64,000 nt of DNA, from positions 110,262 through 174,261 of the forward strand of contig PDSF01000029.1 of assembly GCA_002748355.1 (NCBI GenBank), in the 5' to 3' direction. Within the stretch, counting starts at the first letter, position 1, and each line of letters opens with the position of its first letter. The notes below the pieces were generated by a model that saw nothing but the letters and a program-made list of their open reading frames with translations, was not told the DNA's origin and did not search any database. The stretch comes from Planctomycetota bacterium. GTDB taxonomy: Bacteria > Planctomycetota > UBA1135 > GCA-002748355. Positions 5,734 to 20,277 of this stretch are shown here, piece by piece. A program made the translations under genes and the position numbers.

Positions 5734-6767
5734 GTGAGGCCCCACAGCTAGACGAGTGGATCTCCCTCGACGGCCCTGACAGCGATGTCGTCTTCTGCAC
5801 GCGGATCCGGCTCGCCCGCAACATCGAGACCGCGAGTTTCTCACCCAGCTTGGGCGAGGAGGAGGCCGAGGAGCTGGTTCACTCACTCCAGGACTCCCTG
5901 CAGGACATCGCCAAGGATCACGGCTGGAGCTATGCCGATCTCAGCCAGCTCAGCCCCCTCGATCGTCAGGTCCTACTCGAACGCCATCTCGTCAGCCGAG
6001 AGCTGATCGACAGCGAGCAGGCCCGCGGCGTCTACTACGACCAGCGCGGGCGTAGCGGCTGCATGGTCAACGAGGAGGATCACCTGCGCTTGCAGGTCTT
6101 CCGCAGTGGCCTCCAGCTTGAGGAGGCCATGGAAGCTGCCGACCTGCTCGACGACGAAATCAGCGAAGCGGTGCCCTACGCCTTCCACCAACAGTTTGGA
6201 TTCCTGACCGCCTGCCCGACCAATACCGGGACCGGGATGAGGGCCTCGGTCCTGCTCCACCTGCCGGCACTGGTGCTCGCAAAGGAAATCGACAAGGCCG
6301 CCCATGCCGTCCAGGACATTCCCATGGCGGTCCGCGGCTTCTACGGCGAAGGTAGCCGAGCCGTCGGCGACCTGTTCCAGGTCTCCAACCACCGCACCCT
6401 CGGCCTCGACGAGGACATGACGGTGGAGCAACTCGGGCACGCGGTGCAATCCCTGCTCAAGTGGGAACGAACCCAGCGCGAAAGCTATCGCCGCGACCCG
6501 CTCTTCCTCTTGGACCGAGCCCACCGCTCCCTGGGCGTGCTCCAGCACGCCCAGCGCCTCAACTCCGAGGAGACCCTCGACCTCGTCTCCAAACTGCGGC
6601 TCGGCCGAGTCCTTGGTCTCGTCGAAGAACTAAGCGAGGAGCAACTGCTGCGCATCTTCCTGCTCACCCAACCCGGGCACCTGCAGGCGCATTCGGGCAA
6701 GGCACTCGATGCCGAGGGACGAGACTTGCTCCGAGCCCAGCTGGTGCGGGAGATCCTGGCCGGCTAA
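5730..6767 (+). CDS. mcsB: protein arginine kinase McsB (ATP:guanido phosphotransferase family)
   Basis: 345-aa ORF carrying the guanido-kinase active-site signature FLTACPTNTGTGMRASVLLHLPAL. Overlaps the mcsA stop by 4 nt. Confidence 0.9.
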   Translation: MSEAPQLDEWISLDGPDSDVVFCTRIRLARNIETASFSPSLGEEEAEELVHSLQDSLQDIAKDHGWSYADLSQLSPLDRQVLLERHLVSRELIDSEQARGVYYDQRGRSGCMVNEEDHLRLQVFRSGLQLEEAMEAADLLDDEISEAVPYAFHQQFGFLTACPTNTGTGMRASVLLHLPALVLAKEIDKAAHAVQDIPMAVRGFYGEGSRAVGDLFQVSNHRTLGLDEDMTVEQLGHAVQSLLKWERTQRESYRRDPLFLLDRAHRSLGVLQHAQRLNSEETLDLVSKLRLGRVLGLVEELSEEQLLRIFLLTQPGHLQAHSGKALDAEGRDLLRAQLVREILAG

Positions 6768-7052
6768 GCCAAGCCGGGTGCCTGATGCCCGGAACCCCAG
6801 GCCTTGGGAAGGGCCTTGAACCAACACCACCCCGTACTCAGCCTGCCGCCAATTCGCGAGTGAATGGGTGGCGGATGGGCCTGACGCTGAGCCGATCAAG
6901 CCGATGACATGAGACTTATGGGCAGATCCACCCCTTCCTCTCAATTGCGCAGCGGAGAGGGTCGATCTACAACCATCGAGGGGAGCTTGATTCCACGCCC
7001 CCTGACTCGATCGATCGGCTGTCGCCGACCGTGAAACCCCTGGAGGAGCCCA

Positions 7053-9596
<2,544 letters not shown>

Positions 9597-13732: not shown

Positions 13733-14851
13733 TCAGTTTCCTCGGCTAGTGGGCTTCTGGCGCTCGGCTGGGAAAAACGGTGCTCCCTTCGCAGCCTGCA
13801 GCCGCTCCTCGGCCATGCGGTCAGCAAGGTCGTGCGGCGGCTCCCCTTCGTACTCAGCCTTCTCGAAGATCTCCAGCAGGGCATCCTCGATGCGATCGAT
13901 CGCCGCGTCCTGGTCGCGATCACCCGTCAAATGGTAGTTTGCCCCCAGCACTAAGGCGCCGCTGTTGGTGATGAAGTCGGGTGCCAGGAGTATCCCTCGA
14001 TCCCAGAGCACCTGCGCATATTCCGGCCCAGCAAGCACGTTGTTGGCGCTGCCGACAATGGCATCACAGCGGAAGCGTCCGACGCTGAAATCGTGAACAA
14101 TGCCGCCAAGGGCACAGGGAACGAAGATGTCGCAGTCGACGCCATAGACCGATCCCGGCTGCACCGCCTCCGCCCCAAGCTCAGCACAGGTGGCGCTAAG
14201 CAAGTCCGGATCGAGCTCGGAAAGGGTCAGGCGCGCCCCCGCTGCGTGCAGCTGCTGCGCCACCTTGCGGCCAACACCGCCAAGACCCTGCACACAGAAG
14301 TGCTGCCCTTCGAAGCCTTGCCGAGCTGGGTCCGAGGAATACTGCGGGTGCTTGCGTGACAGATAGCGAACGACCGCACGCAGGCCAGCCATCACCCCAC
14401 GGGCGGTGGCCAGGGAAAGATCCCCGGGACCTTCTGCCCCCGGCCGAGTCACGAAGCGGGTCGTCTCCGCCAGGAAACCGAGCTCCGCCTCTCCCGTACC
14501 GACATCCGGTCCGGTGTAATACCGCCCCCCCATGCTCTCGACGTATTCTCCGAGGCGACGGTAGGCCCCCGGCACATCGAGATTGGGGTGGTCGAACAAG
14601 ACCACCTTGCCGCCACCACCAGCCACGCCCGCGAGCACGCACTTTTTGGACATCGCCTGCGAGAGACGAAGCACATCAGCGAGACCCTCACGCGGATTGC
14701 GATAGTCGAATCGGCGAACGCCACCAAAGGCGGGACCTTGGCTGGTGTCATGGATCGCGACAAAGGCAAGCATTCCCAGGTCTAGATCCTGAAGGATCTG
14801 GACCTGCTCGTGCTCGGCTCCAATCATCGCTTCCAACAGTTCTGTCGGCAT
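13733..14851 (-). CDS. Glu/Leu/Phe/Val dehydrogenase family protein (leucine dehydrogenase-like)
   Basis: 372-aa ORF with GPAFGGVRRFDY and the AGVAGGGGKVV catalytic Lys region. C-terminal Rossmann motif VQGLGGVGRKVAQQL. Confidence 0.85.
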   Translation of the reverse strand: MPTELLEAMIGAEHEQVQILQDLDLGMLAFVAIHDTSQGPAFGGVRRFDYRNPREGLADVLRLSQAMSKKCVLAGVAGGGGKVVLFDHPNLDVPGAYRRLGEYVESMGGRYYTGPDVGTGEAELGFLAETTRFVTRPGAEGPGDLSLATARGVMAGLRAVVRYLSRKHPQYSSDPARQGFEGQHFCVQGLGGVGRKVAQQLHAAGARLTLSELDPDLLSATCAELGAEAVQPGSVYGVDCDIFVPCALGGIVHDFSVGRFRCDAIVGSANNVLAGPEYAQVLWDRGILLAPDFITNSGALVLGANYHLTGDRDQDAAIDRIEDALLEIFEKAEYEGEPPHDLADRMAEERLQAAKGAPFFPAERQKPTSRGN

Positions 14852-15002: not shown

Positions 15003-15983
15003 ATGCCGAGTTCCTCCGCCATACTGCGCCCCCTCGCCCTCCTCGCCGCCCTGCTGCTTCTCGGGCTGAGCGCCTGCAGTTCCCGCGGCGAGTCGGCCGC
15101 TAAGGATCCGAGCATCGAGAAGCAGTTCTCCGAAACAGAGAAGATGCGCCAGGAGCAGAAAGCACGGGAACAACAGACGGGCTTCCTGCTCAAGCGCTTC
15201 GACGATGCGCTCAATGCCTACCACCACAATCTGCAACTCGGCAGCGGCCAGGACATCGCGACCAAGGTCGAGAGCGTGCGTCAGCTCCTCGAGCAGGAAG
15301 CGCTCCGCTTCCAATCTCAGCTGCTGGGTTTCCTCCGCGACGAAGAAGCCCGGCCGCGCTGGATCGCCGCGGCGGCACTCGGCTTCTCCGGTGACCCCAA
15401 GGTCATGGAAGCCCTGGTCGTCATGCTGAAAGATCCAGTCGCTCGCGTGCGAGAGAGCGCGGCCCTCGGCCTCGGGCAGCTGGCTGTCCCCTATACCCCC
15501 CTCGACGCCCTCGAGGAGCGGCTCTTCGATCCGCGCGAAGAACTCCCGGTCCAGCGCAGTGTGGCCTGGTGCCTGGTCCGCCTGCAGCTGGCGAAGGCGC
15601 CAGCCGAACCCTTCCGCCGAATCTGGCCCGAGCTCCTCGCCGGAAATCTCTTCCGCAAGGACGAGATCCTCAGCCTCCATGGACTCCACGGCCTCGGCCT
15701 AGTCGGCGAGCAGCGCTTCGCTGCCGAGGCCAAGCGCTACCTGGCACATCCCCGGGCGCTGCTTAGGCAAAGCGCCCTCATCGCCCTCGCACGCTGCGGG
15801 ACTCGCGAGAACGCTTCCGACATCCTCCCCTTCCTATCGCAGGCAGAGAGCGCCCCCAACGTTCGTCTCACCGCCCGCAAGGCACTCAAGCACCTCACGG
15901 GAAATCGGGTAGACCACGGCTTCGACCTCGGCGCCTGGCGCGCCGAGTTCGGACTGGTGGAGCAGGAGCAAAAAGACGGTTAG
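15003..15983 (+). CDS. HEAT-repeat lipoprotein (hypothetical)
   Basis: 326-aa ORF with signal peptide plus lipobox (LLLLGLSAC). HEAT-like repeats are present (AAAALGFSGDPKVMEALVVMLKDPVARVRESAALGLGQL; RQSALIALARCG). Confidence 0.6.
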   Translation: MPSSSAILRPLALLAALLLLGLSACSSRGESAAKDPSIEKQFSETEKMRQEQKAREQQTGFLLKRFDDALNAYHHNLQLGSGQDIATKVESVRQLLEQEALRFQSQLLGFLRDEEARPRWIAAAALGFSGDPKVMEALVVMLKDPVARVRESAALGLGQLAVPYTPLDALEERLFDPREELPVQRSVAWCLVRLQLAKAPAEPFRRIWPELLAGNLFRKDEILSLHGLHGLGLVGEQRFAAEAKRYLAHPRALLRQSALIALARCGTRENASDILPFLSQAESAPNVRLTARKALKHLTGNRVDHGFDLGAWRAEFGLVEQEQKDG

Positions 15984-15992
15984 CCTCGGGGC

Positions 15993-17219
15993 ATGGCCTT
16001 ACCCCCTCCCTCTAGGCTTTTTGCCCTCGCGTTCGGTACACTGAGCGCCCTGGCGCTGATCGCCGCGAAAAGCGGACAAGCCCAAGGCTTCGTCGCTCCT
16101 CAGGGCCGCAGCAAGCAGCTCGAAGCCCTGGCCAAGGGTCCGGTCCAGGCCCTCGCCGGGCTTCGAATCGAGCTGCGCGCCAAGAAGCGGGTTCCGGAGA
16201 AGAAGGACTTAGAAGCGCCCAAGGCTGGGGCAGAGCAGAAACGCCCAAGCGCGAAAGCCAGCAGCAGCCTCCTCCGTATCGACCTCCAGCACCCCAGCCG
16301 TATGCGAGTCGAGTTCCGCCGTGCCGAAAAGATGCCCCCGGAGCGGATCTGGATTCTCGACGGCACCAAGCACTGGCACTGCGAAGCGGATGGTGCCCAC
16401 CTCCTGCTTCGTGGGGACTCGGCCAAGGAAATGGAGGCACTGTTCGCGCTCGCAATGAGCCTGGCGCACTGGGACCAGCTCGCTCCTGGTGCCGAGCTGC
16501 GTAGCGAGAAGGGAATACTCCTCAGCCATGCCAAGCTGGGCTCCCGCCAGCTACGGGTCCGGCGCTCCGCTTGCGCCTGGCAAATCGGCGAGCAGCGCTA
16601 CCGCCTGGTAGGGCGCCATGGGCAGCTCCCCCGCCACCTGATCGGGGAGGCACAGAGTTTCGAGCTTCTGCGCTTCGAGCCGGGACTGCACTTCCTCGAG
16701 ACCCGCTTCGACCCCAAGCAGCTGGGAAAAGAAGAGCTGCGAACGCTGCGGCAGGGAGTTCCCGAGCCCAACTTCCGAGCGCCAAAGCTGGAACGCCAAA
16801 AAGGCTTCAGCTACCTCGAGCTGACAGATCCCGGATCTTGGCCCATGCGCCTGCAAAAGGTTCACGAACTGGGCATGGCCCTGTTCCAAGCTCGGCAGCT
16901 CCCCGCAGGCCTGCCCATCTATACCAGCACGGGCAAGCTCTGGATCCCCTTCCAAGGGCCCGCCGGAAAAGCGGCGCAGGCTCCACCCGGCCAGCAGCGC
17001 CAAGAACTCGGCCCGGGCCTCGTCCTGGTCCTCCACTGCCGCGCAACGATGCCCGCCGGCCAGAAGCTTCTCGCCAAGCGCCTCCTCGCAGCCCTACGCC
17101 GCATGGGCCGCAAGCCGGCTGGCCCCCTCATGCTCCGCCCCCACGTGCTCCCCGGCGACGAAGTCCCCGGCCCCAAAACCCAAGTCCTCCTGCGGGGCGA
17201 GCTGCGCGTCCGGGATTGA
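15993..17219 (+). CDS. hypothetical secreted protein
   Basis: 408-aa ORF with a signal-peptide-like N-terminus (FALAFGTLSALALIAAKSGQAQG). Same strand as its flanking genes, 9 nt after the previous one. No confident domain call. Confidence 0.5.
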   Translation: MALPPPSRLFALAFGTLSALALIAAKSGQAQGFVAPQGRSKQLEALAKGPVQALAGLRIELRAKKRVPEKKDLEAPKAGAEQKRPSAKASSSLLRIDLQHPSRMRVEFRRAEKMPPERIWILDGTKHWHCEADGAHLLLRGDSAKEMEALFALAMSLAHWDQLAPGAELRSEKGILLSHAKLGSRQLRVRRSACAWQIGEQRYRLVGRHGQLPRHLIGEAQSFELLRFEPGLHFLETRFDPKQLGKEELRTLRQGVPEPNFRAPKLERQKGFSYLELTDPGSWPMRLQKVHELGMALFQARQLPAGLPIYTSTGKLWIPFQGPAGKAAQAPPGQQRQELGPGLVLVLHCRATMPAGQKLLAKRLLAALRRMGRKPAGPLMLRPHVLPGDEVPGPKTQVLLRGELRVRD

Positions 17220-17363
17220 CCGGCCGCTTAGGCAGGGCAGGGACGACGGCAAGGGAGGCCCCGCGACGAGGCCGCCGGGCCCTGAGGATTCGCAGCACCT
17301 GTCCCCTCACGGGGGCAACTAGGCCCCTCAGGCACTGGTATCTTCTTTGCCTCTACTCACTCC

Positions 17364-19319
17364 ATGATGACGCCAAGGCCCTGGCCCCTATTCGCTCTCT
17401 TCGCCTTGCTGCTCGCCCCCGCTGTTCTCCAAGCACAGCGAATGGGCAGCGACGCCCACGCCCAAGGCCGCCGGGCTACGGACCGTCCGACAGCCCGGGC
17501 TACGGCGAGGCCCACGGCACGCGCGATTCCTCGGGTAAGGGCTCGCCCTGCAGCAGGTGCTACGGCTCGCCCTAGGGTTCAGGTCAGCCCTCGCCCCACC
17601 GCTCGCCCGGCTCCCAAGCCACAGATGCGAAGTGTTTCCCGGCGTCCAATACGACCTGTCCCGCGCAGCACGACGCGCAGCTTGCCCCGTGCCGCCACCA
17701 GCGCAGCGGCGCGGATGCGCGCCACCCTTCGCCCACGGCCTCGAGCAAGCTCAGCCCAAACACCAAGGCGCAGCGCCAGGCCACGCCGCCCCATCACTCC
17801 CATCCGGCCCTACCCAAGCCAAACGAGAAGCCCCGCCCATGGCAGCTATACGAGGCCAAGCCGACGTCCGAGCGTCCGCCCCATCCCCCGACGGACGACA
17901 GCCGTCAGGTCAACGGGCACTCAGCCGAGAAACAGGCTTAGCGCCAGGAAGCGAGGCAGCATCAGCCCAGCCGCCATCTTCCGATCGGCCAGCCCCAGCA
18001 GCGACAGACGGAAGGCCAGGACTCGCAGCCTGCACAAAGCAGCTCGCCCGAAGCCGCTGGTGAAGCGCTTTGTCCCGGATGCGCAGGCCAAACGCCCCAA
18101 GCTGCGCAGCGATCCCCTCCCCCCCAGCTTCCAGCCACACAGCTCCCAGCCACGGAGCGAGAAGCTCAAGAGCCGTAGTGTCTTTCTGCGCGGCCAGGAC
18201 CAAGCCATCAAGCCCATAGCCCGCAGGGTCGTCAACGATCGACATCCCTATGCCAGCAGCAAGCGACGACCGGTCCCGGGAAGCCAAACCCCAATCGCAC
18301 GAAGGGCCCTCGGCAACGCCGTCGCTAGAGGGACCCAAGCCCCCGGCCTTCCTCGCCTTGGCCAGCTCTACGCCCACAACCCAGGTCTCATCGACACCAT
18401 CGGCACCCGGGTCTTTGCCAGTAAGGGGCGCGACAGCTACCTGCAACGCAGCCGTCACCACTACCGGGCACGCTTTGGACTGAGCTTCTGCTTCGGCGGC
18501 AGCAGCTTCTACACCGGCTTCTGGAACTACTGCCACCGCAGCTGCTACGCACCCTATTGGTGGGACTGCTACCAGCTTCGCTGGGGCAAGAGCTTCTACT
18601 GGTGGCTGCCCGCAGGCTGCTACCCCACCTGGCGCCGCTACTGGAGCAATTGGTGGTGCTGGTCGACCTCGTATGACTGCCAGCCCTGGGAGCTCTCGGG
18701 CTACTGGGGCACGCCGATGGGCTTCTACGCCTTCAGCTCTAGTGTCGACCCCGATAGCAGCTCAACGATCTACACCGAGCACATGGACGATGATGACAGC
18801 GAGCCAGTAAGCGTCGATCTTCCCGAGGAGAGTTCCGTCACCCGACTCGCCCGCCAGTATCTCGAGCTCGGCGAACTCTACTTTCGGACGCGCCGCTACC
18901 TGCGCGCCGTATCCGCCTACGAGAAAGCGGTCGAGCTAGCGCCCGACGACCCCATCCTCCACCTCCTTCTCTCGGACGCACTCTTCGCGGACGGTCGCTA
19001 CGCACGCGCCGCCTTCGAAATCCGTCAGGCCTTCGACCTCGACCCAAATCTGGCGAAGGCCTCCATCGACAAGCGGCTCCTCTACGGCTTCCCCGAAGAC
19101 TTCAGCAAGCAGCTAGGCCGCCTCGAGGACTTCGTCGCGAAGACCCCCTTCGACACCAATGCCCGACTGGTCCTCATCGTCAACCTACTCTTCAGCGACC
19201 AGCTAGACCGGGCTGAAAAGCAGATCGAAGTGCTCGCCGGACACCTGAAGGGAAACGAAATCGTGCCGCTACTCACCGAGGCCATAGAGGAAGCTCTCTT
19301 GCGCCGCTCAGCGAAGTAA
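17364..19319 (+). CDS. secreted protein: Arg/Pro-rich low-complexity region, Trp/Cys/Tyr-rich block, C-terminal TPR repeats
   Basis: 651-aa ORF. Signal peptide MMTPRPWPLFALFALLLAPAVLQAQ. Degenerate ARPT-type repeats. W/C-rich block encoded at about 18477-18740. TPR-like C-terminus (YLELGELYFRTRRYLRAVSAYEKAVELAPDDP...). Confidence 0.6.
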   Translation: MMTPRPWPLFALFALLLAPAVLQAQRMGSDAHAQGRRATDRPTARATARPTARAIPRVRARPAAGATARPRVQVSPRPTARPAPKPQMRSVSRRPIRPVPRSTTRSLPRAATSAAARMRATLRPRPRASSAQTPRRSARPRRPITPIRPYPSQTRSPAHGSYTRPSRRPSVRPIPRRTTAVRSTGTQPRNRLSARKRGSISPAAIFRSASPSSDRRKARTRSLHKAARPKPLVKRFVPDAQAKRPKLRSDPLPPSFQPHSSQPRSEKLKSRSVFLRGQDQAIKPIARRVVNDRHPYASSKRRPVPGSQTPIARRALGNAVARGTQAPGLPRLGQLYAHNPGLIDTIGTRVFASKGRDSYLQRSRHHYRARFGLSFCFGGSSFYTGFWNYCHRSCYAPYWWDCYQLRWGKSFYWWLPAGCYPTWRRYWSNWWCWSTSYDCQPWELSGYWGTPMGFYAFSSSVDPDSSSTIYTEHMDDDDSEPVSVDLPEESSVTRLARQYLELGELYFRTRRYLRAVSAYEKAVELAPDDPILHLLLSDALFADGRYARAAFEIRQAFDLDPNLAKASIDKRLLYGFPEDFSKQLGRLEDFVAKTPFDTNARLVLIVNLLFSDQLDRAEKQIEVLAGHLKGNEIVPLLTEAIEEALLRRSAK

Positions 19320-19410: not shown

Positions 19411-20277
19411 CTAGTGGCGGAAGCTCGGGAGTTCACTGCGATAACTGCGCAAGGCATCGGCCTCCCCTCTTCTCCCCAATAAGCCGAGGCTATGCACGAG
19501 GTTGCTCAGGATGCGGAGGAATACGTCTTCCTCACTGCTCGCCTGCAAGCAGCTGGCGTTATAGCCATAACCGAGTTCACGAAGCTTGCGCAGGCAAGCC
19601 TTGCGTGTCAGGACTCGGCCACCGTTGAAGGAGTCGAGATAAAGCGGCCGCGGACCAGGAAAGCGCAGCAAAAAATGTCCAGGCAAGGGCACCGGATCCA
19701 GGTCGAGGCCGATCCGCCGAGCGACGAGCAGATAAAGGGCACAGAGAGCAGCGGGCATGCCTCGACGCCGAACAAGCACACGATGCAAGAAGCAGTTGTC
19801 GGGGTTGTCGTAGCTGTCCCGATCTCCATCAAAGCCCAACTCTCCATAAAAGAAGTGTCGAAACTCACCCGCGAGGGCATGCGGGTCCCTGCCCCGCAAT
19901 CTCGGCTCCAGAAGTGCCGCATAGAGGTCGAGGCCGCGCCTCTGACGATCAGCATCGACTTGGGGATCCACCAACGAACCTATTTCGATCCAGGCCTCTT
20001 CAAGATCGACCTGCTGTGAGCGCAAGCGACCGAGATGATCCCGCTCCCAGAGGTCGAGGTGGATGCGGCGCTGCAAGCTGCGAACACGAGCGCGCGCACG
20101 AGGATCCTCGCACTCTTCGATCTCTTGCAATACTGCAAGAGCCTCCCGCCCAAAACCACGCAAACGCTTGGCGCAAATCTCGTGGATCCTTGGGTTCGAG
20201 TCGAGCAGCAGCTCAGCCATGGCGGACATGGACGAGCGCGTAGGCTCAGGCTCAGGGGAAAGTCCGGACGGGTCCAT
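19411..20277 (-). CDS. SirB1/YchA-like transglutaminase-fold protein
   Basis: 288-aa ORF. DSYDNPDNCFLHRVLVRRRGMPAALCALYLLVARRIGLDLDPVPLPGHFLLRF matches the SirB1-family core as I remember it. Confidence 0.7.
   Translation of the reverse strand: MDPSGLSPEPEPTRSSMSAMAELLLDSNPRIHEICAKRLRGFGREALAVLQEIEECEDPRARARVRSLQRRIHLDLWERDHLGRLRSQQVDLEEAWIEIGSLVDPQVDADRQRRGLDLYAALLEPRLRGRDPHALAGEFRHFFYGELGFDGDRDSYDNPDNCFLHRVLVRRRGMPAALCALYLLVARRIGLDLDPVPLPGHFLLRFPGPRPLYLDSFNGGRVLTRKACLRKLRELGYGYNASCLQASSEEDVFLRILSNLVHSLGLLGRRGEADALRSYRSELPSFRH

Follow-up and report, generated by a model that had tools for sequence, protein, structure and literature searches.

CpoB combines a signal peptide with a C-terminal tetratricopeptide repeat (TPR) domain, and in TonB, TolA, and LpoB a long Pro-rich or disordered spacer connects a targeting segment at the N-terminus with an interaction domain at the C-terminus. 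Both layouts appear to recur in the 651-amino-acid (651-aa) product of an open reading frame (ORF) with an ATG start at positions 17364-19319 (+) of a 64-kb stretch of the Planctomycetota contig PDSF01000029.1, a stretch that we refer to as the window. The sequence is identical to NCBI PIE23910.1, whose record is titled 'MAG: hypothetical protein CSA62_05825 [Planctomycetota bacterium]' (MAG, metagenome-assembled genome). We interpret this protein and its relatives as an undescribed, rare, and lineage-restricted family of secreted TPR scaffolds with two unusual low-complexity modules, an Arg/Pro-rich disordered region and a block dense in Trp and Tyr. An earlier note on this DNA had described the same ORF, and all of the features that it quoted are present in the sequence.

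The bacterial envelope TPR adaptors (NlpI, PilF/PilW, CpoB/YbgF, MamA, and SycD/LcrH, the class II chaperones of type III secretion systems) likewise have three to five docking hairpins, and Foldseek and NCBIfam touch these families weakly. However, the adaptors lack the ~350-aa Arg/Pro-rich region and the Trp/Tyr-rich block, and the invariant residues of the family described here (DK..Y and D..AR..N) are foreign to them. None of the named NCBIfam equivalogs claims the window protein (MamA, 27.1 versus 200; PilW, 16.6 versus 154; PrsT, 31.6 versus 312.2; SycD, 15.3 versus 104.8). TonB and TolA are reviewed in PMC12204202, and the window protein does not group with these force transducers; it has no TonB_C or TolA domain in Pfam or NCBIfam, and there is no ExbB, ExbD, or TolQ/R among the called neighboring genes of the syntenic locus. 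TonB and TolA also keep an uncleaved anchor, whereas the window protein has a 14-aa hydrophobic core followed by a small-x-small pattern that looks cleavable. Compared with TonB, TolA, and LpoB, its spacer carries a strong positive charge, and it has the aromatic block in addition.

Cys-rich YTV-domain proteins, which are lineage restricted, secreted, and of unusual composition, are present in planctomycete wall preparations (PMC12673574, PMC8567305). The window protein shares lineage restriction, probable secretion, and odd composition with these wall proteins of the Planctomycetia, but there is no Pfam YTV match at E values up to 0.1 and no YTV tripeptide in the sequence. The YTV proteins are Cys rich, whereas the window protein has seven Cys residues that are confined to the aromatic block and not conserved, and its family differs in phyletic range, being found in a handful of uncultured lineages.

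Two further resemblances concern composition. Trp/Arg-rich peptides such as indolicidin, tritrpticin, and lactoferricin owe a strong affinity for anionic membrane interfaces to the combination of Arg and Trp. They are 13 to 25 residues long with Arg and Trp interleaved, whereas here a 345-aa Arg-rich part and an 87-aa Trp-rich part are separate within 651 aa, and the locus, unlike those of such membrane-active peptides, looks like a housekeeping locus, is syntenic, and has no sign of a toxin-immunity or bacteriocin context. In FUS, Tyr-Arg contacts are made between a Tyr-rich low-complexity domain and an Arg-rich RGG domain. The window protein similarly joins a disordered region rich in Arg, and not in Lys, to a low-complexity region rich in Tyr and Trp, conserved by composition and not by position, but FUS is a nuclear protein of eukaryotes that has RNA-binding domains and numerous Tyr residues spread along the chain, whereas the window protein is bacterial, probably extracytoplasmic, and has one compact block; the likeness is one of analogy and not of homology. 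The TonB/LpoB 'reach' proteins, the Trp/Arg peptides, and the FUS-type sticker-spacers all resemble the window protein by analogy only.

Extent of the family and order of its parts

The family was collected with a profile search and by scanning metagenomes and the genomes of species representatives, and comprises ~25 sequences; all sources with a name are Planctomycetota MAGs, and the rest are from metagenomes. Members score at least 237 bits in the profile search, compared with 66 bits for the best protein outside the family, a generic TPR protein, and by these scores the family is sharply delimited. It is small and found only in uncultured Planctomycetota. Its members share one order of parts, namely a signal peptide, a disordered region, a short motif, the aromatic block, an acidic linker, and a TPR-like domain (Table 1), and fall largely into the window's own clade (clade A: the window, L001, L005, and L007-L009, with P0026 placed by sequence) and a second one (clade B: L010-L014, L039, and relatives); L and P numbers denote loci and proteins, respectively. 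The earlier note recognized no described family with this order of modules, and none is found in Pfam, NCBIfam, a PDB profile search, or 1.84 billion representative sequences. A literature search similarly returned no described family with these features.

Table 1. Parts of the window protein and the two genes upstream of it, with window positions
Feature	Position	Strand	Basis or remark
HEAT-repeat lipoprotein, 326 aa, lipobox LSAC	15003..15983	+	Pfam HEAT_2, 61 bits; first gene of string
408-aa protein, signal-like N-terminus, no known domain	15993..17219	+	9 nucleotides after HEAT gene, 144 nucleotides before the 651-aa gene
Signal peptide, aa 1-25 (MMTPRPWPLFALFALLLAPAVLQA, followed by Q)	17364..17438	+	By inspection of sequence
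Arg/Pro/Ala/Ser/Thr-rich disordered region, aa 26-370, 345 aa	17439..18473	+	Composition
Short linear motif P-L-V-K-R-F-V, aa 231-237	18054..18074	+	Family pattern [ILVM][ILVMA]x[RK][YF] (ΦΦx[RK][YF])
Aromatic block, aa 371-457, 87 aa	18474..18734	+	Composition; 13 W, 11 Y, 8 F, 7 C
Acidic linker, aa 458-494	18735..18845	+	11 D+E versus 1 K+R; starts with short β-like stretch STIYTEH
C-terminal TPR-like domain, aa 495-651 and stop	18846..19319	+	Two canonical TPRs and two to three degenerate helical hairpins

The ~165-aa C-terminal domain is the best-conserved part, with 37 to 62% identity to the window protein and ~20 invariant residues. The TPRs reported there by the earlier note are well supported, and the domain belongs to the TPR superfamily (Pfam clan TPR) both by profile scores above the cutoffs and by the stacked antiparallel hairpins of the model. 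Pfam matches at aa 496-562 are to TPR_2 (41.1 bits, cutoff 27; aa 497-562), TPR_8 (34.5, cutoff 25.7), TPR_19 (35.2, cutoff 25), and TPR_16 (33.5, cutoff 32.7), and AlphaFold predicts ten helices in four to five helical hairpins across aa ~486-651 with a predicted local distance difference test score (pLDDT) of >90. Foldseek returns only generic TPR proteins (consensus TPRs/CTPR, RPAP3, SGT, CHIP, MamA, NlpI, and PilF) at E values of 4e-5 to 1e-3, and we regard the domain, from profiles and model together, as a generic peptide-docking TPR module. The family-specific invariants include D538, A539, D569, K570, Y574, D597, R601, and N607, a set that the structural TPR consensus does not explain.

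The aromatic block holds 13 of the 14 Trp residues of the whole protein and 7/7 of its Cys residues, as the earlier note had counted, and is enriched over the rest of the protein in both (Fisher tests, p=2e-11 for Trp and p=6e-7 for Cys); elsewhere in the 64-kb window, 60-aa stretches of all six frames fall short of its aromatic density. Trp, Tyr, and Phe together make up 35 to 47% of the block in 13/13 members examined, the length is 84 to 93 aa in 11/13, and in clade B there are hardly any charged residues. Conservation by position was set as a test by the earlier note for both Trp and Cys, and it is seen in part for Trp and not for Cys: W413, W414, W423, W427, and W431 are identical in 8 to 11 of 12 homologs and aromatic in 8 to 12, whereas the best Cys column (C394) is kept in 6/12 and the other six in 0 to 3 of 12. 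Block Cys counts over the 13 members are 0, 2, 3, 3, 3, 4, 4, 5, 5, 5, 5, 7, and 8, and thus are often odd, and three of the seven Cys residues of the window protein are already missing from its closest homolog (P0002, 60% identical over the C-terminal half and 71% in the block). In an AlphaFold model of aa 334-651 built from a 14-sequence alignment, the block has pLDDT values of 31 to 46 and no confident fold.

Nothing outside the TPRs is matched in Pfam or NCBIfam, the PDB profile search returned TPR chains only and these only through profile positions >150, and phmmer with aa 340-460 against the 1.84 billion representatives found only the protein itself, P0003, and one spurious repetitive protein (P0080); a match of the block to a known domain family, raised as a check by the earlier note, is thus not seen in any of these collections. 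Selection seems to keep aromatic density, a roughly constant length, and a few Trp and Pro anchors, as is typical of a low-complexity functional module. The Wimley-White interfacial free energy summed per block is -28 to -44 kcal/mol in every member (-32 kcal/mol in the window), and the TPR domain has a positive value per residue.

Two other features of the block are evident. At window positions 18534-18710 (aa 391-449), a loose pattern, C-[YQ]-x(0,1)-P-x(0,1)-W...YW, recurs three times at intervals of 20 to 25 residues (CYAPYWW, CYPTWRRYW, and CQPWELSGYW); it is recognizable in L001 too and could be an internal repeat unit. The L009 block is a Tyr/Gly/Ser 'prion-like' sequence (YGPYGWNYYHGAYCYSNYYSPYYY...).

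The region between the signal peptide and the block is 21% Arg, 14% Pro, 13% Ala, 11% Ser, and 7% Thr, with 71 Arg and 13 Lys residues and a net charge of +74, and has no Pfam or NCBIfam match. It is thus the basic low-complexity region of the earlier note, although somewhat longer than the 300 or so residues given there. An analogous region of 280 to 400 aa with 9 to 19% Pro is present in the same frame in every full-length member, and Arg exceeds Lys 5- to 19-fold in these regions, compared with Arg/Lys ratios of 1.5 to 3.2 in three of four neighboring proteins. The description of this region as a polycation holds in clade A, where the net charge is +61 to +94, but not fully in clade B, which keeps the Pro/Arg character as SRPAP/SRPxP repeats with a mixed-charge segment and has a net charge of only +20 to +31. 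The ARPT-type repeats are degenerate and discernible only at the peptide level; Tandem Repeats Finder identifies no DNA tandem arrays of note in the region, and the comparison of repeat number between strains that the earlier note suggested is therefore inapplicable.

Translation of the N-terminal part had been set as a test by the earlier note, and 14 homologs have a signal peptide followed by a similar region. Since the homologs' frames begin with a signal peptide and then run into a Pro/Arg-rich region, the long 651-aa form is, by comparison, the real protein.

The window protein starts with MMTPRPWPLFALFALLLAPAVLQAQ and has a short n-region with R5, a 14-residue hydrophobic h-region (LFALFALLLAPAVL), a c-region of L-Q-A, and Gln at +1. 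An equivalent n/h/c peptide is present in 13 further homologs; in 12 it coincides with the first ATG of the open frame or lies close to it, and in one (L005) it is cut by the contig start; n-regions are basic, h-regions are 10 to 14 aa long, and most end with a small-x-small pattern and then Gln, as in those ending with LASA, SSAA, ITSA, EALA, and SAEA, each directly before a Gln at the predicted cleavage site. Judged by the criteria of PMC9360617 (a positive n-region, an h-region of 7 to 15 residues, and small residues at -3/-1), the window protein and the 13 homologs fit a type I signal peptide by inspection, although the basic early mature region is atypical. The h-regions of 10 to 14 aa are too short for a membrane anchor, and with the A-x-A-type c-regions they suggest cleavable Sec signal peptides. 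Both upstream genes likewise carry export signals, and we consider it likely that the protein is exported.

We note that nearly all members have Gln at +1 relative to the predicted cleavage, usually followed by Arg at +2 (window 17436-17441, codons 25-26). The conserved Gln suggests an N-terminal pyroglutamate, and a conserved Arg at +2 is odd for a Sec substrate.

The short motif occurs once or twice in 16 of 20 family sequences, mostly 100 to 170 aa N-terminal of the aromatic block, within surrounding regions that cannot be aligned; its clade B form is R-E-x-I-L-x-R-Y-R, and the full frame of P0027 (L069) is a seventeenth motif-bearing sequence (GPLVRYDHGP). Composition-preserving shuffles of each region give a chance occurrence of 0.004 to 0.07 per sequence, but the pattern was defined after the sequences were inspected, and the motif is a lead rather than a statistic. 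In P0029 (L068), a His/Asp-rich stretch (DHDHDGLYDDFYDHHHHYHHHHY) at residues ~255-275 lies directly N-terminal of the aromatic block; it is absent from the other members and could be a metal-binding feature.

A net-acidic linker of 28 to 80 aa is at the equivalent place in all members, and in the window protein it includes the sequence quoted in the earlier note (HMDDDDSEPVSVDLPEE). The linker of the closest homolog has MEEVE (L001 ~8790-8815, ...GHMEEVEELRE...) where the window has HMDDDD, and the other clades have nothing similar. MEEVE resembles MEEVD, the Hsp90 ligand of carboxylate-clamp TPR domains, which may be a coincidence or may reflect a linker-TPR contact within one chain.

A proposed envelope scaffold and the alternatives

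We propose that the protein is exported and acts as a scaffold in the envelope, with one end that adheres by virtue of its composition and another that docks partners through its TPRs, and assign this reading a probability of about 0.45. Following Sec export and signal peptide cleavage, which would leave Gln as the new N-terminus, the protein would be retained in the cell envelope. The Trp/Tyr-rich block and the Arg-rich region would there form a module that is sticky because of its composition and not because of a fold locked by disulfides. This module would settle on the interfaces of membranes or on anionic polymers of the envelope, and contacts between Arg and aromatic residues may let it self-associate as well. 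The long Pro-rich region would be a flexible spacer between the adhesive and docking ends, with the TPR domain binding an extended peptide of a partner. The likeliest partners are the products of the two co-encoded genes (HEAT lipoprotein and 408-aa protein) or else the ΦΦx[RK][YF] motif of the family itself; in the last case, head-to-tail chains would be permitted. It is plausible, as the earlier note had it, that binding to anionic polymers or membranes is combined with TPR scaffolding, and polycations are known to condense polyanions (PMC10028949).

Several considerations weigh against this proposal. Its basis is computational, with localization, binding, and partners all inferred. The first 18 residues past the predicted cleavage site have a net charge of +2 to +5, and over its full length the region reaches +74 in the window; a basic early mature region reportedly impairs Sec export in Escherichia coli, work attributed to Yamane and Mizushima in 1988 and to Andersson and von Heijne in 1991. 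The positive-inside rule would also hold such a basic segment in the cytoplasm (PMC9360617), and a high positive charge is not a conserved property, as clade B illustrates. The block has five conserved Trp and two conserved Pro positions, and the AlphaFold alignment contained only 14 sequences; with so shallow an alignment, the block may have a specific fold or may fold on binding. Among the neighboring genes, the ~400-aa proteins upstream in clades A and B align with an hhalign probability of 19% (E ~1e-3), which falls short of showing homology, the conserved Glu/Leu/Phe/Val (ELFV) dehydrogenase gene at the locus has no obvious functional tie to secreted proteins, and the conservation of gene order could in part reflect the shared ancestry of related lineages.

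The alternative that survives best, although we think it unlikely, is by analogy with FUS a cohesive matrix or condensate former, in which the Arg-rich and Trp/Tyr-rich parts are complementary 'stickers' through which the exported protein would polymerize or phase-separate to give a gel-like layer of the envelope or holdfast, and the TPR end recruits clients. It overlaps with the envelope scaffold and differs in taking self-association as the primary activity. The strong preference for Arg over Lys, a block conserved by composition rather than by sequence, the 'prion-like' block of L009, and the presence of an acidic linker in all members are consistent with it, although valence is limited with one aromatic block per chain, and the several conserved Trp positions hint at more than generic stickers. 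Planctomycete walls are reported to be rich in unusual proteins (PMC12673574, PMC8567305), and polycations readily drive condensation (PMC10028949), but a general wall component is expected to be widespread and this family is rare (~25 sequences, all from MAGs). A broader form, to which we give little credence, has the Arg-rich region and the Trp/Tyr block as an extracytoplasmic 'sticker-spacer' that drives condensation or gelation in the periplasm or wall, or is a wet adhesive at the surface or holdfast, with the matrix organizing a HEAT/TPR complex. If true, this would be a composition-encoded, material-forming envelope component without a described bacterial counterpart.

It is also possible, but rather doubtful, that the protein is not exported at all, the hydrophobic segment being an uncleaved N-out/C-in anchor or nonfunctional and the polycation residing in the cytoplasm. 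Its S/T-P-R-R motifs would then bind DNA, RNA, or polyphosphate in the manner of a membrane-tethered protamine or histone H1, and the TPR domain would recruit cytoplasmic partners. The dense positive charge directly after the hydrophobic segment would fit the positive-inside rule (PMC9360617), as would TPRx and SPRR-type repeats (e.g., PPRRTYQPPRRS in L009) fit nucleic acid or polyphosphate binding, and unconserved, often odd Cys counts suit a reducing compartment. However, hydrophobic cores of 10 to 14 residues with a small-x-small pattern in nearly all members are a cleavable Sec signature (PMC9360617), both co-oriented neighbors are exported or lipoproteins, clade B members are only mildly cationic, and a free +74 polycation in the cytoplasm is expected to be harmful (PMC10028949).

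A role in glycan binding, in which the Trp and Tyr residues of the block stack on peptidoglycan strands or exopolysaccharide and so place a TPR adaptor, much as peptidoglycan enzymes are placed by NlpI, CpoB, and LpoA, is an improbable reading drawn by analogy. Dense aromatics with a few conserved Trp positions would suit it, as would a TPR fold resembling NlpI and PilF among many others and a galactokinase-like downstream neighbor in clade B. Known carbohydrate-binding modules, however, have ~3 aromatics on a folded scaffold, compared with ~32 in the 87 residues of the block, and there is no similarity to such modules in Pfam, NCBIfam, or the PDB; AlphaFold predicts no fold for the block, and the TPR matches are generic. 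The least probable by far is the earlier note's own version, a folded Trp/Cys 'disulfide knot' that binds anionic polymers, which seven Cys within 87 residues of a probably exported protein might suggest but which the comparative data contradict (no Cys column kept in more than 6/12, three of seven lost in the closest homolog, family counts of 0 to 8, and a block pLDDT of <50, with neither the Cys number nor the Cys spacing conserved as in disulfide-rich knottin-like or carbohydrate-binding mini-domains), and on sequence and model grounds we suggest that this idea be dropped.

If the envelope scaffold holds, a bacterium exports a protein in which composition, and not folding, makes the working parts, with Arg-rich sequence as the spacer and a patch rich in Trp and Tyr as the adhesive. 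This bears on the construction of the unusual planctomycetal envelope, the proteins of which are largely lineage specific and uncharacterized, and raises the question of how Sec copes with a +74 passenger. The short motif and the three-gene module (HEAT lipoprotein, ~400-aa protein, and TPR protein) are concrete experimental handles. Should the protein be no more than a TPR adaptor with low-complexity tails that is peculiar to this lineage, the gain would be a modest improvement in annotation.

Gene neighborhood

The same-strand string of three genes at 15003-19319, pointed out in the earlier note, is present in the window and conserved across the family. For the 408-aa protein, Pfam, NCBIfam, and the PDB offer no match, a homolog search returned only itself, and a single-sequence AlphaFold model is unusable (pLDDT 36); its orthologs are directly upstream of the TPR gene in L001 and L007-L009. 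The full order of a divergent ELFV dehydrogenase gene, the HEAT gene, the ~400-aa protein gene, and the TPR gene is seen in L001, L007, and L008, and from the HEAT gene onwards in the truncated locus L009. In clade B, P0021 (L070) has the same four-gene order, and in P0029 (L068) and L012 the order is kept with a class I/II aminotransferase gene inserted between the HEAT gene and the ~400-aa protein gene. L010 has the dehydrogenase, HEAT, and ~400-aa protein genes all upstream, only the dehydrogenase and ~400-aa protein genes are detected upstream in L011 and L013, the ~400-aa protein is detected in L039 with a weak HEAT match, and the P0027 locus (L069) starts with the aminotransferase. All of these clade B loci have a no-Pfam protein of ~380 to 420 aa directly upstream of the TPR protein. 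That three co-oriented, tightly spaced genes for exported proteins are kept together argues for a functional module, because both clades, as well as P0029 and P0021, retain the string at 30 to 40% identity.

The dehydrogenase gene of the window (13733-14851, -) codes for 372 aa and is divergent from the HEAT gene; its position is kept in both clades (L001, L007, L008, L010-L013, L068, and L070). In L012, L068, and L069, the class I/II aminotransferase gene is directly upstream of the gene for the ~400-aa protein. Downstream, a convergent Transglut_core2 (SirB1/YchA-like) gene (19411-20277, -) ends 92 nucleotides from the stop of the TPR gene and is kept only in L001 and L009; clade B often has a galactokinase-like gene on the other strand in this slot. 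There are no Rfam families at the locus, and promoter- and terminator-like sites are no commoner than in shuffled sequence.

Gene calling within the family

The G+C content around the gene is 65 to 70%, and an open frame and its composition are weak coding evidence in such a context. G+C at third codon positions (GC3) and codon framing are uninformative for the N-terminal region, because Arg, Pro, Ala, Thr, and Ser force G or C at codon position 2. A 334-aa off-frame ORF (16571-17575, +) that overlaps the 408-aa gene has an Arg/Pro/Ala-rich translation and is a typical high-G+C artifact, which illustrates that such a composition alone proves no coding.

A second gene caller reports only the last 419 aa of the window protein (P0001), from a GTG at codon 233 (window 18060), and all candidate starts that retain the conserved block are at or before this codon. 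This downstream start, nearer to the aromatic block, was rejected, as NCBI annotates 651 aa and a signal peptide ahead of a similar region begins 14 homologs. P0002 (L001) is called as 458 aa, yet its frame is open for 733 codons, with MMLLSLRPLLLLCAFFALDLAASAQ and then ~385 residues of R/P/S/T-rich sequence in the upstream part; P0003 (L005), the next relative, runs off the contig edge with ...LGLLFSAALLLIQSQLPAQ, followed by a similar region. Gene callers thus often truncate or split genes of this family, with truncated calls of 419, 458, and 336 aa. In L001, the truncated call at 8001 adjoins a spurious 170-aa antisense 'gene' (7487-7999, -) within the Arg/Pro-rich coding region, and in L070 the N-terminal part is called as a separate 333-aa gene (5910-6911).

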